Assembly (NCBI GenBank): GCA_965215155.1
Contig: CBDCCY010000002.1
Coordinates: forward strand, 559,698 to 623,697
Origin: Vicinamibacterales bacterium
GTDB taxonomy: Bacteria > Acidobacteriota > Vicinamibacteria > Vicinamibacterales > UBA8438
Length of the DNA stretch: 64,000 bases
Direction: 5' to 3'
Shown: piece by piece, positions 11,826 through 36,462 of the stretch
Layout: each line of letters begins with the position of its first letter
Position numbering within the stretch: the stretch's first letter is position 1
Translations under genes and position numbers: made by a program
The notes under the pieces: model-generated
What the model was told of the DNA's origin: nothing
Databases searched by the model: none
The model's input: the letters and a program-made list of their open reading frames with translations, nothing else

Positions 11826-12983
11826 GTGTCCAACGCCTGAAGTTCTTGACCAGTAGAATCGGCTCGTGGTACGGTCGGCCCGGAAGCGAGGAGGGCCGTG
11901 CCGAACCATTACACACGAGAGGTCCCGGAGGTCTCGGACGCACAGCGCGAGGAACTGGAGGGTTGGCTGCGCCGGCGCAATACCGCGCAGGCTCTGGCCC
12001 TGAGGGCACGCATCGTGCTGCAGAGCGCCGCGGGACGGAGCGACCAGGTCGTGGCGCAGGCTCTGGGCACGACGCGGGCCACGGTCGGCAAGTGGCGGCG
12101 GCGGTTCCTGCGCAACGGCTGCGACGGCTTGCTGGACGAACCACGGCCGGGCGCGCCGCGCCGGGTGTCGGACGAGGACGTCGAACGGGTCGTGGTCCGG
12201 ACGCTGGAGACGACCCCACGGGGGGCGACGCATTGGAGCCGGGAGTCGATGGCCCGAGCCTGCGGGCTGAGCGCTTCGACCGTCGGCCGCGTGTGGCGCG
12301 CGTTCGCGCTCAAGCCCCATCGCAGCGAGACCTTCAAGCTGTCGCGAGACCCGTTGTTCATCGAGAAAGTGCGCGATATCGTGGGGCTGTACCTGCATCC
12401 GCCGGAGCGAGCGGTGGTGCTGTGTGTGGATGAGAAGTCGCAGATCCAGGCGTTGAACCGTACCCAGCCGGTGTTGCCGATGCGTCCGGGAGCACCGGAG
12501 CAGCGGACACACGACTATCGACGGCACGGCACGACCTCGTTGTTCGCGGCCCTGAACACCGCCACCGGCGAGGTGATCGGCAGGTGCTTTCGGAAGCACC
12601 GCTCGGTGGAGTTCAAGCGCTTCCTCGCCGTGATCGACAAGGCGGTGCCGCCCGACCTCGACATCCACCTGGTGCTGGACAACTACGGCACGCACAAGAC
12701 GGCGATGATCCACGACTGGCTGGCACGGCGTCCTCGGTATCACCTGCACTTCACGCCCACGAGCGCATCGTGGCTCAACCAGGTAGAGCGTTGGTTCGCC
12801 GAGATCACCCGGCAGCAGATCCGGCGTGGAACCCATCGCAGCACCCAAGCACTCGAGGCGGCGATCAAGGAGTACCTGGCGGTCTACAACGAAGACCCCA
12901 AGCCCTTCGTCTGGACGAAGACCGCCGAGCAGATCCTGGAATCCCTGAAGCGTTACTGCTCACGTATTTCTGACGGTGCACAC
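11826..12983 (+). mobile_element. IS630-family insertion sequence, copy 1 (intact), 1158 bp
   Basis: Ends GTGTCCAACGCC... and ...GGTGCACAC form imperfect inverted repeats. The element is flanked by TA at 11824-25 and 12984-85 inside a reconstructed CTAG target. A second copy lies at 31565..32720. Confidence 0.85.
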
Positions 12984-12986
12984 TAG
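11898..12986 (+). CDS. IS630-family DDE transposase
   Basis: ORF 11898..12986, 362 aa. N-terminal HTH followed by a DDE region ([32 protein letters not shown]). The stop TAG (12984-86) is supplied by the duplicated target TA plus the flanking G. Confidence 0.9.
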
Positions 12987-13249
12987 CAGGCCGTGGACGA
13001 AGGTCTTCCCGGCAGCAGGAGCGGCAGCCGTTGATGGAGCGCCGTAGCCCCTGTCCCCGGCGGATTCGGCGATCGACGCCTCAGGAGCGCGAATCGGATC
13101 GCGATCGGAGGCTCCAGAAGCGGCTCAGGGCGAGTTCGGCGGGCTTGCGGCTCGGTGGAATGAACCGGACACCGTCGGACACGTACCGGTAGCAGCGGGA
13201 GTCCCTGTTGCCCTCCCAGCCCGGGACCGGCAGTCGCAGCCTGCCGGAC

Positions 13250-15189
13250 TCACCGGGAGCCGGGCGCCAGCGACGTGAAGGCCCCCAGCGCGAAGACCCA
13301 GGGATAGAGCGCCTCGGAGTACCAGAGCTTCGCGAAGTACAGCCCGATGGGCTTCGGGGCGATCCGCCGCCCGCCGTCGGTGGCGTCGATCAACCAACGC
13401 ACACCGCCGGTGACGGCCGCGCCGAGACCGGGAACGGCGGCGGCACGCGGGAGGCGCCGGAGGGTCTCCAGCGCCGAGACCGCGACCGCCGTCTCCTCGA
13501 TGGACGGCGGCACGCCGAGCGCGCCACCCCAGCCCCCGTCGGTTCCCTGCGCGCCGACCAGCCAGCGGGCGGCGCGGACCTCGGTCGCGAGCGCCGCTTG
13601 GGCGTCGGGCAGGGCGGCGAGCCCCTCCAGCACCCGCGCCGTCCCGTAGACCGGATTGGCGTCGTCCGGGGCGCTCTGGTTGCCGAACCAGAGCGGAATC
13701 CAGGACCCGTCCGGCCGCTGCGCCCGCTCCAGGAACCGGATGGCCCGCCGCATGGCGCGCTCGGTGCGCAGCCGCAGAGCGGCCGGCAATGCCCCCCGCC
13801 ACGCGCTCCAGGCCCGTAGCGTGTGCGCGGTCAGGTCGGGGCTGCTGCGGTCGAACGGCAGCGCTCCCCAACCGCGGCAGAAGGTCGGGATGCCGCCGTC
13901 CGCGTTCTGCAGATCGAGGAGCCAGCCGATCCCGGCGCAGGCGGCCCGGCGGTGCTCCGCAGCGTCGGCGTCGAGCGCGTGGAGCGCGAGCAGCGCCCCC
14001 GGCGTGTCGTCGGCGTCCGGCACTCCCCCCGGCAGGTCGGTCCAGGCCCAGCCACCGGGGGCGGCGTCGGTGTAGACGTGTCGTTCCCGGTACTGCTGAT
14101 CGAGCAGCCAGCGGCTGAGTGCTTCGATTCCCCGGGGGCCGAGCCGAGCCCGCCAGTCCGGGCGACGAGACAACGCGTTGACGCTGAGCGTCGTAACCCA
14201 GGTGGCCAGGTTCGTATCGATGGGCCAGCTTCCGTCGGCGCGCGCCGAGCGCTCCAGGAACGCCACGCCGCGATCCACCACCGGATGGGCCGCTTCTCCG
14301 GCCGCCACGAGACTCATGACGACGAAGCTCGTGAGCGGCGTCGCCTCCAGGAAGCCTCCTCCCCGCGGCTGGATCGCCTCCAGCCGGCGCAGGGTCCGGC
14401 GGCGCGCCGCCCGGCGCACGAGGCGCGCCAGCGGGTTGCGCGTGGGGCGCTGCCGGTGACGCGCCTGCCCGATGGCGATCAGGGCCGGGAGGGCGTAGCT
14501 GACGACCGGAAGCCGCAACCAGCGGTAGAAGGCCGGCGGCACCGCGGCCAGCTCGTACGGGAGCTGCGGCACATGTCGCCATCCGCTGCCGATCCTGCCG
14601 CTCTCGTCCCGCGGCGCACGCCCCCCCCCCCTGCGTACCCTCGCAGCAACCCGGCCAGCGCGAGCACGGTGAGGATCGGGACCGAGAACGTGCGGTCCTT
14701 GCCGTAGCGCCGGCTGATCGTGCGCGCGAGCGGTTGCGGCTCCAGGCTGCCGGCGTCGCGCAGCATACGGTTGCGGACACGCTCGAGCGCCGCGCGGTGT
14801 GCAGCGTCGCCGTTGCCGGCGATGGTCAGCGCGGCCCAGACCAGGGCGGTCGTGCTGACGTTGCTCGGACTGTCGGTCGTATCGCCCCAGCCGCCATCCG
14901 CGCCCTGCGTCGCGACCAGCCACGCGAGGCCGTTGCGGACCAGCTCTTCGAGCGCCCGGCGGGGCCGGTCGCGGCCGACCAGTGCGAGCGCGATCGCGGC
15001 CGTGGCGGTCGCCAGCGCGGACGACGACAGCTCCCCGGTCCAGTGGCCGTCCGGCGTGCGGGCCCCGAGCGACCTCGCGATCAATCGCTCGAGCGTGTCG
15101 CGGCACTCCGCGGGCCGGACCGTCGCCGGGGGGTCCGTCGCGGGAGGAACGCTCGCCGCCGACGCCGGCGGATCCGGATTTCCGCTCAC
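13250..15189 (-). pseudogene. class II terpene cyclase (squalene-hopene-cyclase-like), frameshifted in a G11 run
   Basis: The N-terminal part is in the frame of ORF 14479..15798, starting at GTG 15189 (GTGA overlap with the upstream stop). The C-terminal part is in the frame of ORF 13250..15106. DxDDT-type motif DADDTPGALLAL and QW-like repeats. The frames switch at C11 (plus strand) 14621-14631. Confidence 0.75.
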
Positions 15190-19593: not shown

Positions 19594-20529
19594 ATGTCGC
19601 AAGCATCCCATCCGGCGGGACGCCGCCCCGAATCGCTGCTGGTGATAATCCCGGCATTCAACGAGGAGGAGTCCATCGGTGAGGTGGTGGCCGGGGTCCG
19701 GGAGTGCGCCGGCCGCCTGGCCGAGTCGGGACTCCGGATGCAGGTCTGCGTCATCGACGACGGCTCCACCGACGACACGGCCGGGGCCGCGCGTACGGCC
19801 GGCGCCGATCAGGTCCTGGTCCACGGCCGCAACCTCGGGTGCGGCGCCGCCGTCCGCAGCGGGCTGCTCCACGGCCGCCAGCAAGGGGCCGACATCGCGG
19901 TCAAGCTGGACGGCGACGGCCAGCACGACCCGGCGGACATCCCCGAGCTGCTCCGTCCCATCCTCGAGGACCGCGCCGACGTCGTCTACGGGAACCGGTT
20001 CTCGCGCATCACTTACCGCATGCCCTTCGTGCGGCGCGTCGGCAACTCGCTCTTCCGCGGGTTGATGCGCTGGCTGACCCACTGGGACGTCAAGGACTCG
20101 CAGCCCGGCATGTTCGCCGTCAACGACGCCTACCTGCAGGTCTGCTTCATCCCCGGCGACTACAACTACACCCAGCAGGTGCTGCTGGACGCCTACCTGA
20201 AGGGGATGCGGTTCGACTGGGCGCCGATAGCGTTCCACCGGCGGAAGGCCGGCGAGTCGTTCGTCTCGCTCAAGTACCCGTTCAAGGTGCTGCCGCAGAT
20301 CCTGATGCTGATGGTCCTCGTCCGCCCGCTCAAGGTCTTCCTGCCGGTGGCGGCGTTCTTCCTGGCGGCCGCCGGCATCGTCTTCGTGGTGGAGCTGGCG
20401 CTCTGGTTCGCCGGGTACACGGCGCGGCCGGTCGAGAACTCCAACCTCGTGCTGGGCATGGCCATGTTCGGCCTGAACACCGGGTTCTTCGGGCTGCTCG
20501 CCGAGATCGTCGTGCGCCGCACGTCGTAG
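19594..20529 (+). CDS. family 2 glycosyltransferase (polyprenol-phosphate sugar transferase-like) with C-terminal TM helices
   Basis: Frame of ORF 19309..20529, ATG 19594. LLVIIPAFNEEESIG, VIDDGSTDDT and KLDGDGQHDP (DxD region), then two TM helices. Confidence 0.8.
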   Translation: MSQASHPAGRRPESLLVIIPAFNEEESIGEVVAGVRECAGRLAESGLRMQVCVIDDGSTDDTAGAARTAGADQVLVHGRNLGCGAAVRSGLLHGRQQGADIAVKLDGDGQHDPADIPELLRPILEDRADVVYGNRFSRITYRMPFVRRVGNSLFRGLMRWLTHWDVKDSQPGMFAVNDAYLQVCFIPGDYNYTQQVLLDAYLKGMRFDWAPIAFHRRKAGESFVSLKYPFKVLPQILMLMVLVRPLKVFLPVAAFFLAAAGIVFVVELALWFAGYTARPVENSNLVLGMAMFGLNTGFFGLLAEIVVRRTS

Positions 20530-20572
20530 GCGCATTCGCCTGAGCCCCAGCACCCACCGCCCCAGTGACCTT

Positions 20573-20599
20573 GCGCGCCCTCACGGGCGCGTTGGGAGT
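20573..20599 (+). repeat. partial copy of a dispersed REP-like element (GCGCGCCCTnnCGGGCGCGTTGGGAGT)
   Basis: Near-identical to 42956-42985 and, in inverse orientation, to 62325-62357. It sits just after the GT2 stop and is cut off by the transposase fragment. Confidence 0.6.
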
Positions 20600-20602
20600 T
20601 TC

Positions 20603-21220
20603 CTCCGAAGCTCACCTCGGCGGCGGTCCATCCCACCCGCCGCGTGACGGCGGGCGATAGCGAGGTACCGTGCAGACCCAGGGCCTGGTCGCGCGGGCAC
20701 ACCCCCTTGCGGCAGGCGTCACAGTGGTAGTAGGCGCGCTGCAGGGTCACCGGCCCCAACAGCGTGGTGAACGTCTTCGGGCGACGGCCGGCGTAGCGCG
20801 CCCGCCGGCCGCAGGCGCACGCGGTGGTCGAACCCGAATGGTCGGAATCGTCCGCGTTGCAGCGCTGCGCCATCCACTGCGCGGCGATGTCGAGGCTGCG
20901 GTGACGGACTGCCTGCTCCAGCGCTTCGAAATCCGCCGCGTCGACGGGCCCGGGACCGATGAGCGCATCGACTTCGGCCCCGATGGCGGCTACGAGCGCT
21001 GCGCCCGAGCCGCTTCCAAGGCCCGGTCCGCCGTGGCGAGCGCGCGGCGGCGAACCGTCTGCACGAACGTCTCGAAGTCCTGCGGAGTCCCGCTCCTCTG
21101 GCTCAGGAACGCGTCGAGGTCGGCTTCCACCGCCGACCGCAAGGCGGCGAACAGCTCCTTCCGGGAGCCCCCTTTTTCCGCCGCGTCAGCAATCCGTTCC
21201 GGCATCTGCGCCTCGGGCAT
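20603..21220 (-). pseudogene. ISKra4-like (zinc-ribbon type) transposase, N-terminal fragment, frameshifted and 3'-truncated
   Basis: ORF 20990..21220 (MPEAQMPERIADAAEKGG...FETFVQTVRRRAL) continues in another frame as ...FEALEQAVRHRSLDIAAQWMAQRCN...CACGRRARYAGRRPKTFTTLLGPVTLQRAYYHCDACRKGVCPRDQALGL...AAEVSF. Similarity stops at about 20603. Confidence 0.5.
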
Positions 21221-21445
21221 GGTCGGAGTCCTCCCTACCCGACGTATCGGTCGATCAGCGCTCGCTCGATACCCCGTACGGCAAGACCCTCAACTTTCTT
21301 GTCGTGCACCCAGGAGGCGGACGGGGAAGAGGCAGAAGCATGGGAGGATCGAGGGATCGCGGACAATCAGATGGGGGCACGGACGGAGAACAGGCCGGAG
21401 GCGGAGAGCACGGACGACACGATGCGCAGCAGGGCAGCGACGGTG

Positions 21446-21775
21446 AGAGTGTGATCCAACCTGTCGTCTGATCACAACAAGGACCGAGGCGAACTTACAC
21501 CGATGATGCCGCAGTAAGGGTGTAAGGAGGACAGGCGGCCGAACTTACACTTCCAGTCACACCTGAACTTACACCCGGCAACCAGCCAAGTCGTTTCCTA
21601 TCAACAGATTCCCACATCACAGACCCACCCCCACGTGCAGACAAAAGGGTCGGGTGGGAGTAGGGGAGCGACCACGCGGAAACCTGGCGGTTTCCGGCCC
21701 CCGCCGGTGCTCCTCCGTCACACCTGCGGGGTCGCGGTCGCTCCCCTTGAAATTGTCCCTCCAGGAAGGGTGAGA
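21446..21775 (+). repeat. repeat X, uninterrupted copy (X-A): hairpin, AACTTACAC iterons and an 84-nt multi-hairpin block
   Basis: Matches 26696-26848 plus 29678-29852 at most positions by eye. Contains TGTGATC-N13-GATCACA (21450-21476), AACTTACAC at 21492, 21542 and 21566, and an inverted GTGTAAG at 21520. Confidence 0.8.
21663..21746 (+). other. 84-nt structured block inside X-A (outer 11-bp stem enclosing two hairpins); function unknown
   Basis: GGGGAGCGACC...GGTCGCTCCCC outer stem. Inner GGAAACC-tggc-GGTTTCC hairpin. Inner CCCCGC...GCGGGG hairpin. The paralogous block is 29744-29827, where the third stem is a perfect 12 bp. Confidence 0.4.
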
Positions 21776-22321
21776 ACCTGCCGTCTCCGCCGGCCGGCCG
21801 GCTCGCGTCGCTCGCCAGCGTCGGGCCATGAACGCTGCCCCGCCTGCGGCGCTCTCCGGCAGCGCGTGCAGGTCGGGCGGAGCCGGCCGGCGGCTTCCAC
21901 CAGAGGCGGGTAGCTACGGGACGGCCGGCGTGTCAACGCGCTTCGCACGTTCTCCGCTGCGCTTCGACCCTGTCGGGTGACACACCGTCCGCCCCTCCGC
22001 TCAGACAGCCGTTGTGGGCCTTGCGGCCCGGCCTGGACGGGAACCGTCCCGTCGTCCCACTCGGCTCGCCCGCGGATGGACCCCCGATGCGGAAAAATGC
22101 GGGCGGCGAGATTTTTCTTTGCCCGTGCAGGTCGCTTCATAGAGTGCGGAAAGGTGCTCATCCGGTCCTGTCCAGTCTCAGCAGGTCGGAAGGCGCCCAG
22201 AAGGGTCTAATCCGTGCAAAGTGCTGCATTGCATGGGTTTGCGCTGTTTGTGGTACGTTGTTCTCCGAACCGCGGGGCGTGATATCGCCGCGCAATCCCG
22301 CCATCTCAAGGAGGGCTGAAG

Positions 22322-22570
22322 ATGACCACGAACCGAGACTTCACCCGCCGGCGTGCGAGCGTCGGAAACCCCCTGCCCAGGCTGCTCACCCTGCGCGACG
22401 TGACCGAGCTGACGGCCCTGTCCCGCTCGGCCGTCTACGCGCTGATGAGCGAGTCCAGGTTCCCGAAGCCGCTCCGCGTCGGCAGCCGCGCCGTCCGGTG
22501 GGTCGAGCACGAGGTGCTCGACTTCATCGCCACCCGCCCCCGCGCCGGCTCGGAGCGGCCCACTCGGTAA
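22322..22570 (+). CDS. AlpA-family HTH regulator/excisionase
   Basis: ORF 22322..22570 preceded by AAGGAGGG. LLTLRDVTELTALSRSAVYALMSESRFPKPLRVGSRAVRWVEHEVLDFI matches the AlpA/prophage CP4-57 regulator pattern. Confidence 0.8.
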   Translation: MTTNRDFTRRRASVGNPLPRLLTLRDVTELTALSRSAVYALMSESRFPKPLRVGSRAVRWVEHEVLDFIATRPRAGSERPTR

Positions 22571-22575
22571 CGGCC

Positions 22576-24477
22576 ATGCTCGACCTGCTCGACCGCCTGG
22601 AGGGCGTCAGGGAGTCGGGTGCGGGCTGGACCGCGCGATGCCCGGCGCATGCCGACCGCCGGGCATCGCTCGCGGTCGGCCGCGGCGACGACGGCCGCTG
22701 GCTCCTGAAGTGCCACGCCGGCTGCGCGTTCGGCGCCGTCGTCGGCGCGCTCGGCATCGACGCCCGCGACCTCTTCCCCTCGAACGGACACCGCCACCCG
22801 CCCGCGCGGCGGGAGGCGGCCGTCTACGACTACGACGGCGTGTTCGAGGTGGTCCGCTACGAGCCGAAGGACTTCCGGCAGCGGCGGCCGGACGGGCGAG
22901 GCGGCTACCTGTGGAACCTCGACGGCATCACGCCGCGGCTCTATCGCCTGAACGACCTGGCCGGCCGCGATGCGGCCGTCGTGGTCGAGGGCGAGAAGGA
23001 CGTGGACCGGCTGTGGTCGCTCGACCTGCCGGCGACCTGCAACGCGGGCGGAGCCGGCCAGTGGAGGTCCACGCATGCCGAGCAGCTCAAGGTTGCCGGC
23101 GTGCGGTCGGTGGTCGTCGTTCCCGATGCCGACGACGCGGGCCGGAGACATGGTCAGGCGGTTGCGCGAGCGTGCGCAGCGGCCGGACTGCGGGCGCGGA
23201 TCGCCGCGCTGCCCGACGGACCCAAGGACATCTGCGCGTACCTTGACGACGGTCACGACAAGCGCGAGCTGGCGGAGGTGATCGCCGCTGCCGAGTCGTA
23301 CGACGGGGCCGCCGACCTGCCGGCCGGGGTCGTGCGGTTGAGTGACGCCGATGTCGAGGGTACGGCGGCCGAGGGACCGCCGGCCGTCGCGCGGCTGATC
23401 GCCCACGCGGGGCGGGTCACGTTGCTGCACGCGCGGGAGAAGGCCGGCAAGAGCACGCTGATCGGCGCCGCGGTGGCCGCCGTCACCCGCGGGCGGTCGT
23501 TCCTGGGCATGCCCACCGTTGCGGGCGACGTGCTGTGGGTCGGCGAGGAGGCGGCCTCGGATGTCAAGGCGCGGCTGTTCCAGTGGGACGCGGACCTGGA
23601 ACGGGTGTACTTCGTCGGCCGGCCGAGCCGGGACCTGGAGCACGAGGCGTCGCTGCGACGGCTGGTCGAGCGGCTGCGGCCGGTGTGGGTCGTCATCGAC
23701 ACCTGGTCGCACTACCTCCAGGTCCATCGCGTGAAGGACACGGCCGGCCCCGGCGAGCAGGGGCTGCTGATCGGCGAGGTCGTCAGTCTGGCCCGCGAGT
23801 CCGGGTCGGCGTTCGCCGTCTCGCACCACAACCGGAAGAACCCCAGCGCCAGCGCCGAGTCCGGCGACGCGGAGGGCGAGTACCGGGACTCGACGGCGAT
23901 CGGCGCGGCCGTGGACATGATCGTGTCGTTGAGCCGGGCGAAGATGCCGCGGGCGCGGCGCCTCACGCCGTCCGGCCGCTGGCCCGAGGAGCCGCTGACC
24001 GTCGTCCTCGAGCCGGGCGTCGGCTACGAGCTGGCGCCGGACCTGGAGGAGGACGAACAGGCCCGTGCGGACGGCAAGCCGCCGGCCCGCCCGCTCCCGG
24101 AACGCGCGCTGCTGCACCTGCTCCGGTGCGATCCGCTGGCCCGGCCTCATGCGAGCACCCTGGCCGACGCGCTCGATTGCAGCGGACGGCGGTACCAGGA
24201 CCTGCGCGCGGCGCTCGATGCGCTGCTCGACGACGGGCTCGTCGACCACGCCCAGCGCCCTGGCGCGACGAAGCAGCGGGACCGGGGCTACGCACTGACC
24301 GCCGAAGGCCGCGAGCGGGCCGAGGCTCTCCGCGACCAGTCGATTTCCGCGATTTCCACCAAGGGAAACGGGGCGGAAACGCTCGGGAACACGCCGGGAA
24401 ATCCAACTCGATTTCCATTTCCGCGATTTCCCCCCCAGGGGGTGGGCGGAAATGGAAATGGAAATCGAACTGCTTGA
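22576..24477 (+). CDS. bifunctional primase (zinc-binding + Toprim) / RecA-like AAA (RepA/AAA_25-type) replication protein
   Basis: Frame of ORF 22012..24477, ATG 22576, 5 nt after the alpA stop. CPAHADRRASL...KCHAGC; Toprim VVVEGEKDVD...VVPDADDAGRRHG; P-loop-like AREKAGKSTL. The last about 45 codons run through the iteron array. Confidence 0.75.
   Translation: MLDLLDRLEGVRESGAGWTARCPAHADRRASLAVGRGDDGRWLLKCHAGCAFGAVVGALGIDARDLFPSNGHRHPPARREAAVYDYDGVFEVVRYEPKDFRQRRPDGRGGYLWNLDGITPRLYRLNDLAGRDAAVVVEGEKDVDRLWSLDLPATCNAGGAGQWRSTHAEQLKVAGVRSVVVVPDADDAGRRHGQAVARACAAAGLRARIAALPDGPKDICAYLDDGHDKRELAEVIAAAESYDGAADLPAGVVRLSDADVEGTAAEGPPAVARLIAHAGRVTLLHAREKAGKSTLIGAAVAAVTRGRSFLGMPTVAGDVLWVGEEAASDVKARLFQWDADLERVYFVGRPSRDLEHEASLRRLVERLRPVWVVIDTWSHYLQVHRVKDTAGPGEQGLLIGEVVSLARESGSAFAVSHHNRKNPSASAESGDAEGEYRDSTAIGAAVDMIVSLSRAKMPRARRLTPSGRWPEEPLTVVLEPGVGYELAPDLEEDEQARADGKPPARPLPERALLHLLRCDPLARPHASTLADALDCSGRRYQDLRAALDALLDDGLVDHAQRPGATKQRDRGYALTAEGRERAEALRDQSISAISTKGNGAETLGNTPGNPTRFPFPRFPPQGVGGNGNGNRTA
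24335..24470. repeat. iteron-like array of GATTTCC/GGAAAT(C) motifs ending in a 59-bp imperfect palindrome (24409-24467) with a C7/G5 centre
   Basis: CGATTTCCATTTCCGCGATTTCCCCCCCAGGGGGTGGGCGGAAATGGAAATGGAAATCG, with at least 10 motif copies across the interval. Lies between the convergent primase and integrase genes. Confidence 0.75.
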
Positions 24478-24536
24478 GGGTCGATCTCTGGGCGGAGTCG
24501 GGGGCCACGGACCCCACGTCACGGAATCGGAATCCG

Positions 24537-25784
24537 TCACCGGCGCAGGGGGATGACCTGCCCCCGCTCCTCACCGAGATAGGCGCCCCAATCGTCCATG
24601 AGGCGTCGGCGGCGCGCGAACAGGTCGGACCGCGCGTAGGCCGCCTCGACCTGATTCCGCACCTTGTGGGCCAGCGCCGCCTCGACGACCTCACGCGGGT
24701 GGTCGGTCTCTTCGGCCGCCCAGTCCCGGAAGCTGGACCTGAAGCCATGCGGCACCGCCGCGATGCCCAGGTCCCGGATGAGCTTCGAGACCGCGGCGTC
24801 ATCGAGCGCCTTCCCGCGGACGCTCGGAAAGACCAGCCCGGCGAACTCGGGCCGGGTCGCGACGCCGCGGAGCTGCTCCGACTCGCGCAGGACCCCGGCC
24901 GCCCGGCCGCACAGCGGCACCCGGTGCTCGCGTTGCGCCTTCATCCGCGCCGCCGGAACCGTCCACACCCGCGCGACAAGGTCGACCTCGTCCCACGTCG
25001 CCCCCCGCGCCTCGCCGGACCTCGCGGCCGTCAACACGAGAAACTCGAAGGCCAGCTTCGTCCCGAGCCACGCATCCGAGCGCTGAACGGCCGCAACCGC
25101 GGCGGCGACCTCGCCGTGCGGCAGCGCCGCCCGGTGCTGCACGAGCACGGGACGCTTCGGCAGCGCCGCCGTGACCGCGTCGCCGGCTGGATTGTCGCTG
25201 CGGTAGCCCTGCGCGATGGCCCACCGCATGACCGTGCCGATGCGATGGCGCACCGACCGCGCCATCGCGTGCTTGCGCGTCCAGATGGGCAGCAGGACCG
25301 TCATGACGTCGGCCGTCGTCACCTGGTCGACGCTCTTGCCGCCGAGGTGCGGAAGCACATGGTCGCGCAGGCTCGCCCGCCACTGCTTCGGGGTCTTGCC
25401 GGCCCGCCACGCCTCCCCGTGGATGGCGATCACCTGCTCGACCGCCTCCTCGAACGTCGGGATCCCCTCGGAGCGGCGCCGGTCCGCGAGCGGGTCTCCG
25501 CCCTCGCGGGCGGCCTTGCGGTTGGCGAGCGCCTTCTCGCGGGCCTCGGCCAACGACACCAGCGCGTAGCTGCCGAGACCGAGCGCGCGGGACCGCCCGC
25601 GGATGACCAGCCGTTGCACCCAGCGGCGCGCCCCGGACGGGTCGACGTGCAGATAGAGGCCATTCCCGTCAGCGTAGCGGCCCGCCTCGGCGACCGAACG
25701 GCAGAAGGCGGCGGAGAGCGCCTTGTCGGGATGGCGGCCCCTGCGCTTGGTGGCTCGGGGTTTCCTGGGCAGGTCCATCGTCAT
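24537..25784 (-). CDS. int: P4-type tyrosine integrase (DUF4102-like N-terminus + phage integrase catalytic domain)
   Basis: ORF 24537..25784. GNGLYLHVDPSGARRWVQRLVIRGR (arm-binding type N-terminus). Catalytic LTAARSGEARGATWDEVDL, HGFRSSFRDWAAE and VEAAYARSD. Confidence 0.88.
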   Translation of the reverse strand: MTMDLPRKPRATKRRGRHPDKALSAAFCRSVAEAGRYADGNGLYLHVDPSGARRWVQRLVIRGRSRALGLGSYALVSLAEAREKALANRKAAREGGDPLADRRRSEGIPTFEEAVEQVIAIHGEAWRAGKTPKQWRASLRDHVLPHLGGKSVDQVTTADVMTVLLPIWTRKHAMARSVRHRIGTVMRWAIAQGYRSDNPAGDAVTAALPKRPVLVQHRAALPHGEVAAAVAAVQRSDAWLGTKLAFEFLVLTAARSGEARGATWDEVDLVARVWTVPAARMKAQREHRVPLCGRAAGVLRESEQLRGVATRPEFAGLVFPSVRGKALDDAAVSKLIRDLGIAAVPHGFRSSFRDWAAEETDHPREVVEAALAHKVRNQVEAAYARSDLFARRRRLMDDWGAYLGEERGQVIPLRR

Positions 25785-25916
25785 CTATCCCATTCCCAAT
25801 TCTCTCGCGGAATATAGCGAAAGTGTGGAGACGGGTCAAGACGACGGAGCGGGAGTAGTGGCCTTTTACTACGGTATTCAGTGCGTATTTCGCAGCACGG
25901 CGCGGAACGGCGCTGG

Positions 25917-26117
25917 ATGGCGAAAGTCGGCTTTCGGTCCTCGTTCCGGGACTGGGCGGCCGAGAAGACCGACCATCCGCGCGAGGTCATCGAGGCGGCG
26001 CTGGCGCACGCGGTCGGCAACAAGGTCGAGGCGGCGTACGCAAGGTCGGACCTGTTCGAGCGGCGGCGGACTCTGATGAACGACTGGGCGGCCTACGTCG
26101 ATCGGGGTCGGCCGTGA
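25917..26117 (+). pseudogene. C-terminal remnant of a second, related integrase gene in inverted orientation
   Basis: Part of ORF 25881..26117. KVGFRSSFRDWAAEKTDHPREVIEAALAHAVGNKVEAAYARSDLFERRRTLMNDWAAYV parallels the last about 65 residues of the intact integrase. Diverged at DNA level (roughly four fifths identical by eye). Confidence 0.75.
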
Positions 26118-26147
26118 TGGCGATCAGCGAGTTGGCCACGACCGCCG

Positions 26148-26295
26148 CGGTTCGATTTCCATTTCCATTTCCGCCCACCCCCCAGGGGGGAAATCGTGGA
26201 AATGGAAATCGAGTTGCGCTTCCCGTCGAGTTCCGGTGCGCTTCCGGCCTGTTTCCATTGGGGAAATCGAGGAAATCGCCTGGCGAGGCGAACCA
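26148..26295. repeat. inverted second copy of the iteron array/palindrome (palindrome 26153-26211)
   Basis: GTTCGATTTCCATTTCCATTTCCGCCCACCCCCCAGGGGGGAAATCGTGGAAATGGAAATCGAGTT is the near-exact reverse complement of 24404-24470. Further GGAAATCG/GTTTCC motifs continue to about 26295. Confidence 0.75.
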
Positions 26296-26473
26296 CACCG
26301 GCCGCCGGCGTGGTGTTGGGGCAACTACGGGCCGGAAGCCAGCTTCCGGCCCGTGGACGGACCGGCAGCCCACCACGTCCCTCGAACCCACGGTCGAACA
26401 CGGCAGCTCCGAGCCCTCGGGTACAGTGGGTCCAGTGATACGAGCCAGAGCAGCGGAACGGAGTCGCGGAGAT

Positions 26474-26530
26474 GCGTTTACCGTTTACGCGTTTCCACCC
26501 CCCCCTGTGGAAACGGTAAACGCGTAAACG
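26474..26530. repeat. second palindrome built from GTTTAC(C/G) units around a C-run
   Basis: GCGTTTACCGTTTACGCGTTTCCACCCCCCCCTGTGGAAACGGTAAACGCGTAAACGG. Same architecture as the GGAAAT palindrome (repeat arms, homopolymer centre). Confidence 0.6.
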
Positions 26531-26695
26531 GATGGGAGGCGCCGCCTCGGCGAGCGCAAGACTCGTGCTACCGATCCGGTTGGGAGACGACGGTCACGGA
26601 GATCAACGGGAACGGACGCGGCGAACGTGACGGAGACCGGGCGCGGGATGAGAATCGAGGTCACGAAGGGACGACGATGGAGACTGGGAACGGGA

Positions 26696-26848
26696 CGAGA
26701 GTGTGATCCACTCCGCGGCCCGATCACAGCCAGGACCGAGGCGAACTTACACCGATGGTGCCGCAGTAAGGGTGTAAGGAGGATAGGCGGCCGAACTTAC
26801 ACCCCCAGTCACACCTCAACTTACACTCGATAACCAGCCAAGTCCTTT
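26696..26848 (+). repeat. repeat X, copy B, left part (ends at the ISKra4-like insertion)
   Basis: Collinear with 21446-21597 of X-A, including the hairpin (26702-26728) and three AACTTACAC iterons. Terminates in AAGTCCTTT, the duplicated target. Confidence 0.8.
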
Positions 26849-26915
26849 GGGTGCGGCTCTTCTTCGTCGGCGGTCCAGAGATGTCCAAGGGTTGCTGCGA
26901 GCAGCAGGGCAAGAG

Positions 26916-28529
26916 CTACTTGACCCGTCGAAGACGGGGGGAGGAGGGCGGTGGGGACGGCTCGGTGACGGGTGGTGCTATCCCGTCAGCATAACGTTGG
27001 GCGTGGTTCCGTTCGTACTCGCGCGCCTCGTGGAAGTCCCAGTAGGCATCGAAGTCGCCGCTGGCTCGTAACGCTCGCAGCTTCAGGACCGCCTCGGCGC
27101 CGACCAGCCGCCAGCGGGCGCCGGTCAACTCCATCCGGTCGCGGACCAGGTGCCGGCACGCCCCCTCGATCACCCCCGTGGCGATGGGATAGCCCGCCGC
27201 GAGGTAGCGGTCGTAGTGTAGATACGGCCCATACTTCAGCAGGTAGTCGGCGCACGTGTCGACCGGCTTGCGGAGGTCGGGCGGCAGGCGGGCGACGGTG
27301 GCCGCTCGGCGCATTGCCGCCGCCACCCACCGGGCCTTGCCTTCGAGAATGCGTCGCACCCGCGTCCAAGCCCAGTATTCCCGCTCGAGGCTCTCCTCGC
27401 GATGGAACACCTGTGCCGCCTTCCAGACGTACTCGACCACGTGGATGATGTCGAGCACCACCGTGACGTCGACGCCGTACGCGGCGGCGCCCGCCTCCAC
27501 GAGGTCGAGCTGCATCTCGGCGCCGTCGACGAGCACGACCCAGCTCTTGACGCGCTCGGGGTCCCGGCGGTCCGCTTCCAGCAGCGCCTCCGCGACCACC
27601 TCCGCCGGCTCCCGTTCGAGGCTCGCCCAGACCCGTTTCGCCACCGGGCGAGGTCGCACGAGCGGGGGCCTGGACTTCTTCGTCCGGGTCCTGGCCACCG
27701 GCGAGCGGGGCATCAGGCTCTGCAGGAACTCCTCCGGGCTCCGCACGAACGGCGCGACCGTGTAGACGGCGGCCACCGTCGCCATGCGCTTCGCGTGCTT
27801 CTTCTCACCCGGCTGGAGACGCGGGAACCAGGCGAGCTGCTCGCGTTGCCGCCGGCGCCGCTCCGCCGCCCGCCGCGTCGCCTCGCGCAGGTCCTCGCGG
27901 TGCAGCACCACGCCCTTGCCGTCGAACGTGAGCACCAGAACCGACCCCTCCGGCGACGGCTCGCCCGCCGCCGCGCGGCGCGCCTCGTAGAAGGCGTCGA
28001 AGTCCTCCGCCGCGCGAGCTGCCAACTGTTCCGCCTGCCGCTTCGGCACCTCCGCTCCGGTATGGCGAGACAGATCGAACAGCGCTTCGTCGAACGACCG
28101 CGACGCGGCCGCCTCCGCCACCCGCCGGCGCACCTCGAGCGAGTACCGCTCCGGCGGCAGGTTGAGCGACGCATCCAGCGGATGCAGACTCTCGTGACCC
28201 GCACGCGCGTAGCCCACGCGCTCGACTTCCACCGTGCCGAAGGTCGTCTCCAGGTGTCGTTCGTGCACGCGCCGTTCCCCGCGCTCGACCCCATCGGCCC
28301 CCGCGACCGGACCGGCCGCCTCTCCCGGGCTGCGCTGGTCGAGGTGCCCCTGCAGGAGCTTGCGCAGCAACTCCTGGCCCCGCCGATTCAGCTCCCGTTC
28401 CAGGTCGCTCTCACTCATCTGCTGCGCTTCGCGCGACGAGAGGTAGGCTTTGGCATCCGCGTATACGGCGTCCGCCGCCGCATACGGCGCCGGGTCGGAG
28501 GGAGCGCCGCGGTCGGCGACGACTCGCAT
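26916..28529 (-). CDS. ISKra4-family transposase
   Basis: ORF 26916..28529, 537 aa. C-terminal pattern GYPIATGVIEGACRHLVRDRMELTGARWRLVGAEAVLKLRALRASGDFDAYWDFH is typical of this family. The start is 3 nt after the DUF4338 stop. Confidence 0.8.
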   Translation of the reverse strand: MRVVADRGAPSDPAPYAAADAVYADAKAYLSSREAQQMSESDLERELNRRGQELLRKLLQGHLDQRSPGEAAGPVAGADGVERGERRVHERHLETTFGTVEVERVGYARAGHESLHPLDASLNLPPERYSLEVRRRVAEAAASRSFDEALFDLSRHTGAEVPKRQAEQLAARAAEDFDAFYEARRAAAGEPSPEGSVLVLTFDGKGVVLHREDLREATRRAAERRRRQREQLAWFPRLQPGEKKHAKRMATVAAVYTVAPFVRSPEEFLQSLMPRSPVARTRTKKSRPPLVRPRPVAKRVWASLEREPAEVVAEALLEADRRDPERVKSWVVLVDGAEMQLDLVEAGAAAYGVDVTVVLDIIHVVEYVWKAAQVFHREESLEREYWAWTRVRRILEGKARWVAAAMRRAATVARLPPDLRKPVDTCADYLLKYGPYLHYDRYLAAGYPIATGVIEGACRHLVRDRMELTGARWRLVGAEAVLKLRALRASGDFDAYWDFHEAREYERNHAQRYADGIAPPVTEPSPPPSSPRLRRVK

Positions 28530-28532
28530 CGC

Positions 28533-29423
28533 TCAAGGCTCCCGCAGCCGCCGCTGCGCATCCCGAACCAGAGGATAGACCAGGACCGTCTTGGGCGCCG
28601 CGCCGGCACGACGGCCGTGCCGGTCCATGCGCCCGCGACCGCTCGTCGCGCCCAACGCGACCCAGTTGGCGGCACGGTAGCAACCCCCGTGGTGGCGGCG
28701 CGCGTCCACCAGCGTCTCCACCAGCCACGGCTCGAGGTGGTACCGGCGCGCCCAGTCCGCCACCAACCGACCGAGGCCACGCGCCAACACCGCGCTGGCC
28801 AGGTTCTTCACCCCGACCCACGGCAGCAACAGGAAGCGGCTGTTGTTGACCACCCGCTGCAGATTCCGCGCCCGCGTCCCATCGTCCCAGCCCACCCAGC
28901 GGTCCCGCACCGCCATGCGCCACGCCGGGCTCGAGAACTGCAGGCAGCCCACCACCGCGCGGACCGGCTTCGACGCATACACCAGATACCGCAGGTGCGC
29001 GCCGAACGGAACCGTGTGCCCCAGGTAGTGGTAGCGACCCACCAGCTCCCGGAACAGCAGCCGCTGCGCGGGCTCCTGCACCAACTCGACCTCCAGCGGC
29101 TCGATGTCGCGGACGCTCCCGACGAGCGAACGTCCCGGCTCCCCCACCGCCGTCCGGGGAACGCGGGTCACCGAACCGACCACGCGCCCCCGCCGCTTGT
29201 CCGGCAGCATCAGCGCCCCCTCCGCGTCGAGCCGTTCCAGGAACTCCCGGCACTCCCGCGCCTTCAGCCTCCCGTTCGGACGCCGCCACCGCAACAGCTC
29301 GCACACCGTGCGCGCCAGCTCCATCCGGCTCAAGCCCGAGCAATCCCGCACGACCTCGCGCATCAGCGTCACCTCGCGGTCGCTGAACGCACGTCCCGAG
29401 AAACTCGTCGTCGCCACGGCCAT
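28533..29423 (-). CDS. DUF4338 domain protein (same domain as Druantia DruA), IS passenger/accessory gene
   Basis: Frame of ORF 28533..29525, likely start ATG 29423 (MAVATTSFSGRAFSDREV). Motifs GRYHYLGHTVPFGAHLRYLV, VVNNSRFLLLPWVGVKNLAS and GGCYRAANWVALGATSGRGR. Confidence 0.75.
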   Translation of the reverse strand: MAVATTSFSGRAFSDREVTLMREVVRDCSGLSRMELARTVCELLRWRRPNGRLKARECREFLERLDAEGALMLPDKRRGRVVGSVTRVPRTAVGEPGRSLVGSVRDIEPLEVELVQEPAQRLLFRELVGRYHYLGHTVPFGAHLRYLVYASKPVRAVVGCLQFSSPAWRMAVRDRWVGWDDGTRARNLQRVVNNSRFLLLPWVGVKNLASAVLARGLGRLVADWARRYHLEPWLVETLVDARRHHGGCYRAANWVALGATSGRGRMDRHGRRAGAAPKTVLVYPLVRDAQRRLREP

Positions 29424-29668
29424 CGCGGGAAGGCGTCTCCCTTCCCACCACACCGTAGCAAGCGCCGCGCGAAATGTCCAGGGGCGCCGGAGAAACAGGC
29501 CACAGCGCCTCAGCGCCGTGGTCACCGGCTCCGGTCGGCTGCTCGAAGGGCCCGGTGGGGACGCTGGTCCGGTGCTGTCCCCGCCAGAATGCCCCCAACT
29601 GAGAGGGGGCGCGGAGATAAACCACTATCAGTCAATGAGATAGCTCTCTACGGAAAAGAGCCGCACCC

Positions 29669-29852
29669 AAGTCCTTTCATATCAACAGATTCCCACATCA
29701 CAAACCCGCCCCCACGTACAGACAAAAGGGTCGGGGGGGAGTAGGGGAGCGACCACGCGGAAACCTGCCGGTTTCCGGCCCCCGCAGGTGTTCCTCCGTC
29801 ACACCTGCGGGGTCGCGGTCGCTCCCCTGGAATTGTCCCTCCGGGAAGGGGG
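29669..29852 (+). repeat. repeat X, copy B, right part (resumes after the IS)
   Basis: Collinear with 21589-21775 of X-A, including the 84-nt hairpin block (29744-29827). Diverges from X-A after GTCCCTCC(A/G)GGAAGGG. Confidence 0.8.
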
Positions 29853-29918
29853 GACAGGCGCTTGCAGCGCCTGCACGGGCCGGCTGCCATGCTCTGCCCG
29901 TGTCCGAAGGCACCCTGA

Positions 29919-30225
29919 CGGAAGGCGGCGCTCGTCGAGGAGGTGGCCGACGCCGCCGGCCTCACGAAGAAGCGCGCCGAGATCATCGTCGACACCCTGT
30001 TCGACAGCATCGCCGAGGCGCTCCGCCACGGGGAGAGGTCGAAGTCCGCGGCTTCGGCAGTTTCCGTCTCCGGCGGCGCGCGCCGCGCCGGGGCCGCAAC
30101 CCCAGGACGGCGACCGGGTGGACGTGCCGTCGAAGCACGTCGCCTACTTCACGTCCGGCAAGGAGCTGAAGGAGCTGATCAACCGGGACCCGGCCCTGCC
30201 GGTGCCGCCGCCGTTGTCCGAGTAG
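29919..30225 (+). pseudogene. IHF/HU-family DNA-binding protein gene with no start codon and two 1-bp frameshifts
   Basis: Three frames join to read RKAALVEEVADAAGLTKKRAEIIVDTLFDSIAEALRHGER / VEVRGFGSFRLRRRAPRRGRNPRT / GDRVDVPSKHVAYFTSGKELKELIN. Each shift is a missing G in a short G run (near 30034 and near 30108). An in-frame TGA lies immediately upstream. Confidence 0.75.
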
Positions 30226-30282
30226 CTGGCGTCGAAGCGTCGCTCCGTCGTCCGCGGCCGGTCCGGTCGCACGGCGCCCGCC

Positions 30283-30395
30283 AACGCGCGTGGACAGCCT
30301 CTGCGAGGGGCGTGTCAAGACTCGATCAAGCGCCGTTACGTAACGCTACTCAAATGAACGCGCGTGGATAGCCTCTGCGAGCGGCGTGTCAAGAC
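30283..30395 (+). repeat. two 39-bp direct repeats (37/39 identical), 74-bp period, in the intergenic region upstream of the GT2 gene
   Basis: AACGCGCGTGGA(C/T)AGCCTCTGCGAG(G/C)GGCGTGTCAAGAC at 30283-30321 and 30357-30395. Each carries TTGACA on the minus strand. Confidence 0.7.
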
Positions 30396-31561
30396 GCTGC
30401 GGTCTTCCGCGGGATCTGTTAGGACGGTGACGGAAACTACGTTGCCACGTTCGCGGGCGCGAGCCCCGGAATCACGGGCCTGGGGCGTCACGCCAGTTGG
30501 CAAAGTTGTATCGATCGCTGTCCTTACGGTATCCTTTCCGATACAGCCCGCGCGTGCCGCGGCCGCTCTCTCGCTACCGAGCGAGAACGCTTGAGCGGGG
30601 GGCGGGGCCGTTGTGGGCAACGCGAATCATGGTTTCTCCACGTCATCCCGTCGAACCCGACGTTCGCGCCGGAGACCCGGAAATCCGTCCGAGCGGCCTC
30701 GCGACGCCGTTCCCATCGGTGTCGGTCATTCTCCCGGCCCGCGACGCCGAGGAGAGCATCGGGAAGGCGCTCGACTCGGTGTTGGCTCAGGACTACAACG
30801 GTTCGGTGGAGGTGATCGTTGCCGACGGGTCCGACAACACCGCCACGTCGGACCTGGTTCGGCGGCTGTATCCGACGGTGACACTGATTCCCAATCCGCA
30901 ACGTGTCATCGGGTATGGCATCCAGGCGGCGTTGCGGGTGGCGACCGGAGAGATCGTCGCACGCTGCGACGCCCATACGACCTGGCCGCCTGGATACCTG
31001 CACCGGGCGGTAGAGACGCTGCAGAGAACCGGGGCGGCCAACGTCGGCGGCCGACAACGACCGGTCGGCACCACGTTCTTCGAGCGCGCGGTGGCGCTGG
31101 CGATGACCACGCCGCTGGGGACGGGGCCTGTTCGCTACCGGCTGGGGGGCCTCGAGGGCCCCGTCGAGACCGTCTACCTCGGCGTGTACCGACGTGACAG
31201 GCTGGCCGCGGTGGGCAGTTACGCCCCCGACATGGTCCGGGGCGAGGACTATGATCTCAATACCCGGCTGCGGATGCACGGGGAAACGGTGTGGTTCGAT
31301 CCCGAGCTCGTGGTCGACTATCGGCCGCGCGGCACCCTGCGGGACCTCGTCCGACAATATTTTGGCAACGGCCGTTGGAAGCGGGTGGCGTTGCTACGAC
31401 AACCGACGGCGCTGCTGCCCCGGCACGGCGGCGGCTTGCTGCTGCCCCGGCACGGCGCCGGCCCGCTGCTGCTGCTTGGGTTGGCGGCCTCCGCGGTCCT
31501 CTTCTGGGCCGGCGCTCCTGGGGCGGCGGCGTTGCCGCTCACGTATGTAGTCACCTTGGCC

Positions 31562-32648
31562 CTAGTGTGCACCGTCAGAAATACGTGAGCAGTAACGCTT
31601 CAGGGATTCCAGGATCTGCTCGGCGGTCTTCGTCCAGACGAAGGGCTTGGGGTCTTCGTTGTAGACCGCCAGGTACTCCTTGATCGCCGCCTCGAGTGCT
31701 TGGGTGCTGCGATGGGTTCCACGCCGGATCTGCTGCCGGGTGATCTCGGCGAACCAACGCTCTACCTGGTTGAGCCACGATGCGCTCGTGGGCGTGAAGT
31801 GCAGGTGATACCGAGGACGCCGTGCCAGCCAGTCGTGGATCATCGCCGTCTTGTGCGTGCCGTAGTTGTCCAGCACCAGGTGGATGTCGAGGTCGGGCGG
31901 CACCGCCTTGTCGATCACGGCGAGGAAGCGCTTGAACTCCACCGAGCGGTGCTTCCGAAAGCACCTGCCGATCACCTCGCCGGTGGCGGTGTTCAGGGCC
32001 GCGAACAACGAGGTCGTGCCGTGCCGTCGATAGTCGTGTGTCCGCTGCTCCGGTGCTCCCGGACGCATCGGCAACACCGGCTGGGTACGGTTCAACGCCT
32101 GGATCTGCGACTTCTCATCCACACACAGCACCACCGCTCGCTCCGGCGGATGCAGGTACAGCCCCACGATATCGCGCACTTTCTCGATGAACAACGGGTC
32201 TCGCGACAGCTTGAAGGTCTCGCTGCGATGGGGCTTGAGCGCGAACGCGCCACACGCGGCCGACGGTCGAAGCGCTCAGCCCGCAGGCTCGGGCCATCGA
32301 CTCCCGGCTCCAATGCGTCGCCCCCCGTGGGGTCGTCTCCAGCGTCCGGACCACGACCCGTTCGACGTCCTCGTCCGACACCCGGCGCGGCGCGCCCGGC
32401 CGTGGTTCGTCCAGCAAGCCGTCGCAGCCGTTGCGCAGGAACCGCCGCCGCCACTTGCCGACCGTGGCCCGCGTCGTGCCCAGAGCCTGCGCCACGACCT
32501 GGTCGCTCCGTCCCGCGGCGCTCTGCAGCACGATGCGTGCCCTCAGGGCCAGAGCCTGCGCGGTATTGCGCCGGCGCAGCCAACCCTCCAGTTCCTCGCG
32601 CTGTGCGTCCGAGACCTCCGGGACCTCTCGTGTGTAATGGTTCGGCAC
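31562..32648 (-). pseudogene. IS630 transposase, frameshifted (2-bp deletion in a GCGCGCG run)
   Basis: ORFs 32115..32648 and 31562..32194 together equal the copy 1 protein. Copy 1 reads GTGTGGCGCGCGTTCGCG and copy 2 reads GTGTGGCGCGTTCGCG (about 32258-32262). Confidence 0.85.
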
Positions 32649-35840: not shown

Positions 35841-36353
35841 CTACGGGAGCGGCGGCGGAAGGCCGAGGAGCTCGGGGACAACGGGCTCGACCGCGCGCAA
35901 CATCGCGGCGATCAGCGGAGGCAGGTCGAGGCCGCGTTGGCGCGCGGTGCGCACGACGCTGGCCAGGACCTGCTGGGTGTCGGCGCCGTGGCGGGTGCGG
36001 TTGCCGCCGCACACCTTGCGGATGACCACGGCGGGCCGGAGGGCCTGTTCGGCGCGCCAGTTGGTGGCGTCGAGCGAAGGGTCCCACAAGAATAGGAACA
36101 CAGCCGGGAATTCGGTGGCCAGGTGCGCCGCGAAACGCTCGGCGTCGTCCAGCGGCGGCGGGGCGTCGACCAGCCGCCCGAGCCGGGCCGTGAGTCGGCC
36201 GCGGGCCGTGGCCATCCCGTGCTCGCTCAGCGCTCCCGCGTTGCAGCGGTCCCGCAGGTCGAGACCGGCCCGCAGGACCGCCGCCACGTCGCCCGCCCAG
36301 GGACTGTTCGGATAGTCCTCCCGGAGCTGCTTGCAGCGTTGTAACAGGTGATT
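35841..36353 (-). pseudogene. IS66-family transposase (TnpC), 3' fragment downstream of the RIT insertion
   Basis: ORF 35841..36287 extended upstream reads NHLLQRCKQLREDYPN...FLFLWDPSLDATNWRAEQALRPAVVIRKVCGGNRTRHGADTQQVL. It continues the HQTCLNH ending of the fragment at 39740..40392. Confidence 0.75.
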
Positions 36354-36462
36354 CTTATTCCGATATCGGAATAAGAACCACTATGCCGATGTCAGGATTA
36401 TTCCGATGTTGGTGCAGACGCCCCTGTTGTTGGCGGCATCTGCACCAAACTGATCGGCATAA

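Follow-up and report, generated by a model that had tools for sequence, protein, structure and literature searches.

Two mirror-image iteron arrays in a Vicinamibacterales genome are most likely replication origins of related small integrative elements

The α protein of phage P4 combines primase, helicase and a C-terminal origin-binding winged helix in one polypeptide, and the short iterons of this phage occur in both orientations. P4 uses a superfamily 3 helicase, requires two iteron clusters, the second of which is crr, and integrates at a tRNA gene. In the case of the SSV-type archaeal integrases, the element splits its own integrase gene because attP lies inside int, and the 'res hunters' Tn5053 and Tn402, which are DDE transposons, insert preferentially at res or par sites of other mobile elements. 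The origins of Staphylococcus aureus pathogenicity islands (SaPIs) and other phage-inducible chromosomal islands (PICIs) consist of 6-12 penta- or hexanucleotide iterons directly downstream of rep, half of them on each side and in opposite directions, which are bound by a winged-helix domain at the C-terminus of Rep (PMC9371898, PMC6092414). This layout was described as shared by PICIs and "no other known bacterial replicon" (PMC6092414). Helper-embedded PICIs carry int, AlpA and pri-rep genes, and their integrases target late genes of prophages, for example capsid and portal genes (PMC10111431). The ~5-kb element described here, called E1, consists of an AlpA gene, a primase-helicase gene, a proposed origin and a P4-type integrase gene, and is located in a 64-kb stretch of DNA from a Vicinamibacterales bacterium (the window, 70.7% GC). 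Comparison with related loci indicates that two mirror-image hexamer arrays near its integrase gene most likely act as replication origins for two related small mobile elements. The relevant features of the window are:

21310-25928, + strand: body of E1, truncated on the left, 98.5-99.2% identical to eight loci of one contig of a Vicinamibacterales metagenome-assembled genome (MAG)
22322-22570, + strand: AlpA-family regulator/excisionase gene (PF05930 Phage_AlpA, E=1.7e-16)
22597-24477, + strand: primase-helicase gene with Toprim_2 and AAA_25 domains (Pfam and PHROG matches)
24336-24473, no strand: array A, proposed as the origin from which E1 replicates; opposed sets of GGAAAT/ATTTCC-type hexamers, 12 in total
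24408-24470, no strand: imperfect palindrome of 63 nt, 3+3 units around CCCCCAGGGGG
24537-25784, - strand: E1 integrase gene of the P4 type with Arm-DNA-bind_3, Phage_int_M and Phage_integrase domains (Pfam, PHROG)
25811-25839, - strand: promoter-like site upstream of int, TTGACC-17-TATATT (consensus match only)
25929-26117, + strand: 3' fragment of the target integrase gene, residues 347-403 plus stop, apparently disrupted by E1
25929-25941, + strand: attR core GGCTTTCGGTCCT, with the putative crossover (overlap) CGGTCC at 25935-25940
26147-26283, no strand: array B, origin-type array in the opposite orientation to array A, probably belonging to the sibling element that was disrupted
26466-26541, + strand: GTTTAC/GTTTCC palindrome, candidate isolated origin palindrome of a third sibling lineage

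A repeat scan showed two inverted-repeat pairs on both sides of the integrase gene, one of 120 nt (24354-24473 and 26147-26266, 86% complementary) and one of 183 nt (24564-24746 and 25929-26111, 78% complementary). Upon global alignment, the 63-nt palindrome (24408-24470 and 26150-26212) is 95.2% identical between the arrays, the upstream units are 81.7% identical, and the whole of array A (24336-24473) is 87.6% identical to array B (26147-26283); the 3' coding end of the integrase gene (24540-24746) and the remnant (25929-26114) share 79.9% identity. An earlier interpretation made without database searches (the sequence-only reading) had described the second array as a near-exact reverse complement of the first. 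The inverted repeat indeed exists, but the description applies to the palindrome only and not to the array as a whole. The diverged C-terminal integrase remnant that had been suspected beside the second array is confirmed, since positions 25929-26099 correspond to integrase residues 347-403 at 82% amino-acid identity and also match integrase PHROGs. A primase remnant proposed beyond array B was rejected for want of DNA or protein similarity: the segment 26284-26465 does not align, as DNA or as protein, to any primase 3' end of the window or of any relative, and a primase-like match (residues 784-821) is given only by the array when translated. Of the convergent junction thought to be present twice, once as a stump, there is thus an inverted stump composed of an integrase 3' end plus array, but it lacks a primase remnant and is not a decayed duplicate of the same element.

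Array A consists of 12 GGAAAT-type units, in the order of two forward, four reverse, three forward and three reverse. The hexamers GGAAAT and ATTTCC occur 17 times inside arrays A and B and 10 times across the other ~63.7 kb of the window. The GC content of array A is 56.5%, 14 points lower than that of the window, and its palindrome folds as single-stranded DNA with -22.8 kcal/mol (z = -5.9). The array overlaps the final 45 codons of the primase-helicase open reading frame (ORF), whose tail reads through it. Protein homologues with 46-73% identity also have 'NGN'-type tails, which implies that their ORFs, too, read into GGAAAT-like arrays. Among three close relatives from other MAGs (loci L008, L010 and L011), the arrays of which are 86-89% identical to array B, the 63-nt palindrome has a single mismatch and the adjacent spacer between the palindrome and the integrase stop is rich in indels, which agrees with the earlier suggestion that the palindrome is under selection. 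No Rfam family matched in the region 21000-30500.

A search with the primase-helicase gave 79 loci, 65 of which were kept because they were not near-identical copies and allowed the primase stop to be located. In these non-redundant loci with distant homologues (891 kb), 72 arrays were found, an array being defined as a stretch of up to 140 nt in which the same 6-mer occurs at least five times and in both orientations. Of these arrays 31, in 30 loci, lie within -300 to +400 nt of the primase stop, against 5.1% expected by length (binomial p = 2e-21). The units vary by lineage (ACGACA, TGTAAC, CGTCCC, GGGACA, GGACGA, CGTTCA, TCCGCA, GGAAAT), and a frequent design consists of three units, a spacer and three inverted units with a period of 8-9 nt. 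The array-bearing loci originate from Acidobacteriota, Gemmatimonadota, Planctomycetota, Verrucomicrobiota, Bacillota and other phyla. Like a PICI origin, array A is located immediately 3' of the presumed initiator gene, as are the arrays of 30 of the 65 distant loci, and its 12 units fall within the range of 6-12 iterons with at least two on each side in opposed orientation.

The second palindrome noticed earlier (26474-26530), of the same design with GTTTAC as unit, is supported by the comparison as well. It folds strongly (z = -5.7) and is 85-86% identical to positions 3568-3648 of L007 and 2021-2100 of L012, both at the primase 3' end of a sibling lineage with 74-76% primase identity. In view of this match it is assigned as the putative origin of a sibling with different specificity. 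Probably this palindrome and a second copy of the upstream region with AACTTACAC motifs (see below) are leftovers of further siblings. In L002, a 1.7-kb repeated element, presumably an insertion sequence (IS), lies exactly inside the GTTTAC palindrome (12467-14163, corresponding to window 26485-26488); the same repeat occurs at L001 2884-4586 and in L006.

Eight copies of the segment 21310-26100, at 98-99% identity, are present in one 7.28-Mb Vicinamibacterales MAG contig (CBDCCO010000007.1; L001-L006, L009 and L013, read as 18-kb loci), none of them near a tRNA gene. At the right junction, the E1 copies agree through ...GATGGCGAAAGTC GGCTTTCGGTCC and then diverge in three ways. In the window, L002, L004, L005 and L009 the remnant and array B follow; in L001, L003 and L006 the 3' end of another integrase gene is found, followed by an unrelated gene and no array; and in L013 the flanking DNA is unrelated. 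Array B is thus absent beside E1 in L001, L003, L006 and L013. Because the copies diverge at this junction, array B and the remnant are neighbours of E1 and not parts of it. For the genes that follow target integrase of the second type (in L001), Pfam gave no informative match.

Left of the E1 copies, tblastn searches detected 5' parts of integrase genes on the + strand, without internal stops and ending at residue 353/354. Their mutual identity is 60-68%, with in addition a 93% variant, which means that at least four different target integrase genes are split. All of them break after CAC GGC TTC CGG TC(C), and every broken 5' part is followed by one common sequence, TGTCTACGGCAAGTTCTTGTAAGTCATTG..., and then by a variable GGACC repeat tract that leads into E1. 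The attL site carries GGCTTCCGGTCC, followed by the left end of E1, and can be written as ...CAC GGCTTC / CGGTCC / TGTCTACGG..., target sequence preceding element sequence; attR reads ...AAAGTC GGCTTT / CGGTCC / (T/A)CGTTCCGGGACTGG..., with the element preceding the target. Both junctions have GGCTTYCGGTCC in common, the left flank ending at residue 353/354 and the right flank beginning at residue 347. A C/T difference immediately before CGGTCC marks the arm boundary, from which a crossover region of ~6-7 bp is deduced. Such a length is typical for tyrosine recombinases. One 5-kb contig from another MAG, L007, contains both junctions, and the core co-varies, reading CGCTCGT at each of them. 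At attL the reading frame of the target enters an unrelated tail of 14-15 codons and then a stop, so the disrupted integrase is shortened by ~60 residues at its C-terminus, and the catalytic-tyrosine region is lost with them.

The integrase encoded by E1 itself belongs to the P4-type tyrosine integrases, the domains PF13356, PF22022 and PF00589 all scoring above their cut-offs and the motif HGFRSSFRDW being present. Its box II is encoded as TTC AGG TCC AGC (24749-24720, - strand), AGG making up 4 of 55 Arg codons. This rare codon alters the presumed crossover sequence in E1's own int and could be a means of self-immunity. In the loci that were read from the same MAG, the other intact integrases, few in number, have AGGTCC, CGCTCC, CGATCC or CGCTCG as overlap and never CGGTCC, which intact integrases of other MAGs do carry. 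Since the attL core may be partly element-derived, we regard the pattern of overlap sequences as a lead and not as a result.

Taken together, it is probable that the two arrays are origins of nested sibling elements and that E1 integrated at box II into the integrase gene of the other element. We infer origin function, excision and target specificity each from sequence comparison. Each array would be the origin of a small PICI/P4-like integrative replicon, in which oppositely oriented sets of hexamer iterons occupy the 3' end of the primase-helicase gene, and array A would serve E1. A predicted winged-helix domain at the C-terminus of the primase-helicase would bind the iterons, which would nucleate helicase loading and melting at a locally AT-richer spot. 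The attachment core used by the E1 integrase, GGCTTY-CGGTCC-T, would be the coding sequence of HGFRS (box II) in integrases of other elements and not a tRNA sequence. Integration would split the target, leaving residues 1-354 on the left of E1 with a short out-of-frame tail and placing residues 347-403, including the catalytic-tyrosine region, on its right. The remnant in the window is then quite likely the displaced 3' end of the target integrase, accompanied by the origin of that element. The target here would be a sibling with the same type of origin. As the core is antiparallel to E1's own int, the target element is expected to be head-to-head with E1, and a sibling built as primase > origin < int produces the mirror image primase > origin < int / int' 3' end > origin'.

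In its gene content, E1 resembles PICIs and SaPIs, with int, alpA and a primase-helicase gene directly followed by the proposed origin, an initiator with a predicted C-terminal winged-helix-like domain, and 6-12 hexanucleotide iterons in two opposed sets of lineage-specific sequence (PMC9371898, PMC6092414). It differs in that the helicase is of the AAA_25 type (RepA/DnaB-like) and fused to a Toprim primase, whereas SaPIs have an AAA+ Rep, and in the GC-rich centre of the array. The AlpA, primase-helicase and int genes are the only ones recognized in the 5-kb unit with Pfam and PHROG; packaging and interference genes and a master repressor are absent from it, no helper phage is known, and the host is an acidobacterium with 70% GC. 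The similarity to P4 lies in the integrase type, the single primase-helicase polypeptide and the iterons in both orientations, but the second array here would belong to another element and not be a crr. Moreover, the helicase is AAA_25, there are no capsid-related matches, and no tRNA gene adjoins any of 13 related loci. Lacking helper, packaging and repressor genes, having another helicase class and not being located at a tRNA gene, E1 is not a demonstrated PICI or P4-like satellite; its module is nevertheless predicted to be, in how it works, a PICI/P4-like int-alpA-pri/rep-ori core. Targeting of tRNA genes was also rejected for the window, where the sole tRNA gene (Phe, 9135-9210) is 15 kb away.

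The closest match in the literature is the helper-embedded PICI (PMC10111431), which is likewise nested in a protein-coding gene of another mobile element and disrupts it. The target of E1 would, however, be an integrase gene, at codons of a catalytic motif common to many elements, which would explain that at least four different genes are hit in one genome, and a helper relationship is not evident. With the SSV-type elements E1 shares an integrase gene split into 5' and 3' parts around the integrated element, but here the element's own int is intact and a foreign int is split. The preference for recombination loci of other mobile elements is reminiscent of Tn5053/Tn402, although E1 is a tyrosine-integrase element that appears to target integrase coding sequence and not a DDE transposon. 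A partial literature search did not reveal a description of elements integrating into integrase genes, which is not proof of novelty.

The palindromes might be only bidirectional terminators, forming hairpins between the convergent primase and integrase genes. The location of the arrays and hairpin energies of -22.8 to -41 kcal/mol (z -4 to -5.9) would suit this function, which we nevertheless consider improbable: the hairpins are not followed by a T-tract, a terminator scan finds nothing at the arrays, six further units lie outside the palindrome, distant relatives keep the hexamers with arms 14-60 nt apart, which is unfavourable for a hairpin, and the units change with the protein lineage. 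The arrays may nevertheless act as terminators besides being origins. A somewhat better case, though still an unlikely one, can be made for arrays that serve partition, copy-number control or autoregulation instead of initiation, the bound protein being the winged-helix domain or a different one. Inverted iterons also act as centromeres and operators, and the centromere-binding protein AspA is among the (non-significant) fold matches. The 5-kb element, however, encodes neither a partition ATPase nor a separate DNA-binding protein, local AT content peaks at the arrays, and their position and design fit the described PICI origin layout. Terminator, partition site and replication site had all been offered in the sequence-only reading, and the comparative evidence favours a replication origin.

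That arrays A and B represent a bipartite system like P4 ori plus crr within one element would account for two iteron clusters of the same specificity 1.7 kb apart. It is very unlikely, as E1 copies without array B (L001, L003, L006, L013) are equally well conserved and array B is past the junction where the copies diverge. We attach the same low probability to the integrase 3' fragment being E1's own attachment site, restoring the target as a tRNA 3' end does on tRNA-targeting islands. The fragment does adjoin E1 in seven of the eight MAG copies, in the window and in L007, but it is on the wrong side for fusion to the 5' part of the target, the target frame at attL runs into the unrelated tail and stop mentioned above, and three variants ~15% apart occur beside 99%-identical E1 copies, with unrelated DNA instead in L013. 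Least probable of all, and hardly credible, is an invertible switch, an inversion of the integrase segment having been suggested by the inverted repeats (137 and 183 nt) around the int gene. The segment has the same orientation in the window, L002, L004, L005 and L009, which are all colinear, so the two orientations were not encountered; the repeats are only 80-88% identical, not near-identical, and an invertase-type arrangement is lacking.

Several observations weigh against nested origins and integration into an integrase gene. Iteron binding, replication, excision and integration are all deduced from sequence. The centre of array A, CCCCCAGGGGGTGGGC, is not AT-rich, in contrast to the centres of PICI origins; of the relatives, L018 and L019, which are low in GC, do have AT-rich array centres. 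The winged-helix assignment is weak. The isolated C-terminal domain (~24100-24335) matched PadR with E=1.7e-4, below the curated Pfam cut-off, and PDB sequence searches with the primase-helicase and with its C-terminus gave no relevant match. Models built from the single sequence and from a 19-sequence alignment both have low confidence, with an H-H-H-strand-strand-H topology, an order of elements that fits a winged helix, and a predicted local distance difference test (pLDDT) score of 52-59 by AlphaFold2. The top Foldseek matches, DtxR, PadR, MarR and AspA, are all winged-helix proteins, all with E >= 0.1 and not significant, and given the low confidence of the model this fold search is indicative at best. 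The circle junction (attP, GCGAAAGTCGGCTTTCGGTCCTGTCTACGGCAAG) was not found in E1-related loci, viral contigs or metagenome contigs, the attR pattern was absent from metagenome contigs, and an empty, uninterrupted target site was not found. Further, the left flank of L001 (..CGCCGGTCC / AGTCTACGG) and the right flank of L013 are not integrase sequence, and several different 5' integrase parts go together with one and the same 3' stump. For these non-cognate flanks, secondary rearrangements between copies must be assumed; those of L001 and L013 fit recombination between copies or use of secondary sites. Finally, the relatives are MAG assemblies, and the insertion is not reconstructable in the window itself because this copy lacks attL.

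The odd flanks of L001 (at 4.005 Mb, forward) and L013 (at 5.527 Mb, reversed) are complementary, and these loci face in opposite directions along the contig; an inversion of ~1.5 Mb of chromosome by recombination between two E1 copies would have this outcome. The E1 copy of the window misses the attL end and also the GGACC repeat tract of the other copies; the left-end motif of E1 was not found in the window, where the DNA left of 21310 differs from that of the other copies. At this left boundary both the window and its positional equivalent L004 deviate from the other copies, and L004 likewise lacks the left end. In L006, a ~1.6-kb insertion (6397-8000, corresponding to window 22263-22268) is present just upstream of or within the alpA region.

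In addition to the features listed above, the window has two copies of an upstream region and an insertion sequence:

21447-21598, + strand: upstream region with three AACTTACAC motifs and one inverted copy (GTGTAAG), ~92% identical direct repeat, 5252 bp from the second copy
26697-26848, + strand: second copy of the E-family upstream region, first half; continues at 29664-30401, contiguous in L004, L005 and L009
26849-29663, - strand: ISKra4-family IS that splits the second E-family upstream region (NF033572, 355 bits)
26916-28529: ISKra4-family transposase gene within the 2.8-kb IS
28533-29624: DUF4338/DruA-like ORF within the same IS (PF14236, E=1e-50)

The AACTTACAC regions may be operator or arm-type integrase sites. 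The motif TGTAAGT, which is related to them, is present in the left end of E1 (CTTGTAAGTCA), and an inverted repeat GGGGAGCGACC...GGTCGCGGTCGCTCCCC is located at 21650-21750, between the AACTTACAC region and alpA, and is kept in the second copy at 29725-29828. The direct repeats 21447-21598 and 26697-26848 were rejected as att sites: their identity is 92%, the mismatches are scattered, and the second copy proves to be another sibling's upstream region, interrupted by an IS. Integrase fragments that all start at about residue 99 are found on the right-hand side of the second E-family upstream region in L004 (13855-14751), L002 (15582-16490), L005 (13893-14549) and L009 (13894-14172); these may reflect a second, different type of junction inside integrase genes.

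The ISKra4-family IS has the terminal inverted repeat GGTGCGGCTCTT and a duplicated CAAGTCCTTT, and is absent from L004, L005 and L009. The Druantia marker domain that it carries may bear on the role of DruA-like proteins. Another family of IS or miniature inverted-repeat transposable elements (MITEs), with terminal inverted repeats CTGTAAGCGTTCGG-N7-CCGGTATGG, is repeatedly found in the variable GGACC(C/G)(T/G)(C/G) tract at the left end of E1, namely in L002, L005, L006, L009 and L013 (for example L013 ~6734-7004 and L005 ~5323-7000), which suggests a target preference for the GGACC tract. The sequence CCATACCGG-N7-CCGAACGCTTAC, considered as left att site, was rejected as it is the terminal inverted repeat of such an IS/MITE. 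Further transposase genes or fragments of the window are located at 11850-12986 (+), 31562-32194 (-), 35841-36380 (-) and 20193-20873 (-), and comprise two of the IS630-type DDE_3, an IS66 fragment and a weak UPF0236/ISKra4-like match. A second tyrosine recombinase gene (37449-38393, -), encoding 314 amino acids with a Phage_integrase domain only, is unrelated to the P4-type integrase. Mobile DNA forms a mosaic across the whole region, interspersed with glycosyltransferase and terpene-cyclase genes.

An integrase gene is an unusual insertion target, and its use most likely silences a competitor. We lean, by a modest margin over even chances, towards E1 being an 'integrase hunter', that is, a minimal self-replicating integrative element whose att site is the box II coding sequence of other elements' integrases. 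If so, every resident element whose HGFRS is encoded with CGGTCC would offer a landing site, the multiple copies in one genome would be accounted for, and each insertion would decapitate the integrase of a competitor and immobilise it. E1 would protect its own gene by coding the same residues as AGG TCC AGC, and when the victim is a sibling, the origin placed beside E1 could be fired or titrated by the E1 initiator. This would be a direct conflict between mobile elements and would also explain how a site-specific element becomes multi-copy; such multi-copy 5-kb repeats can drive chromosome rearrangement. The PICI-type origin layout would also exist with Toprim/AAA_25 primase-helicases, which may provide a simple sequence rule for recognizing origins in uncultured mobile elements.

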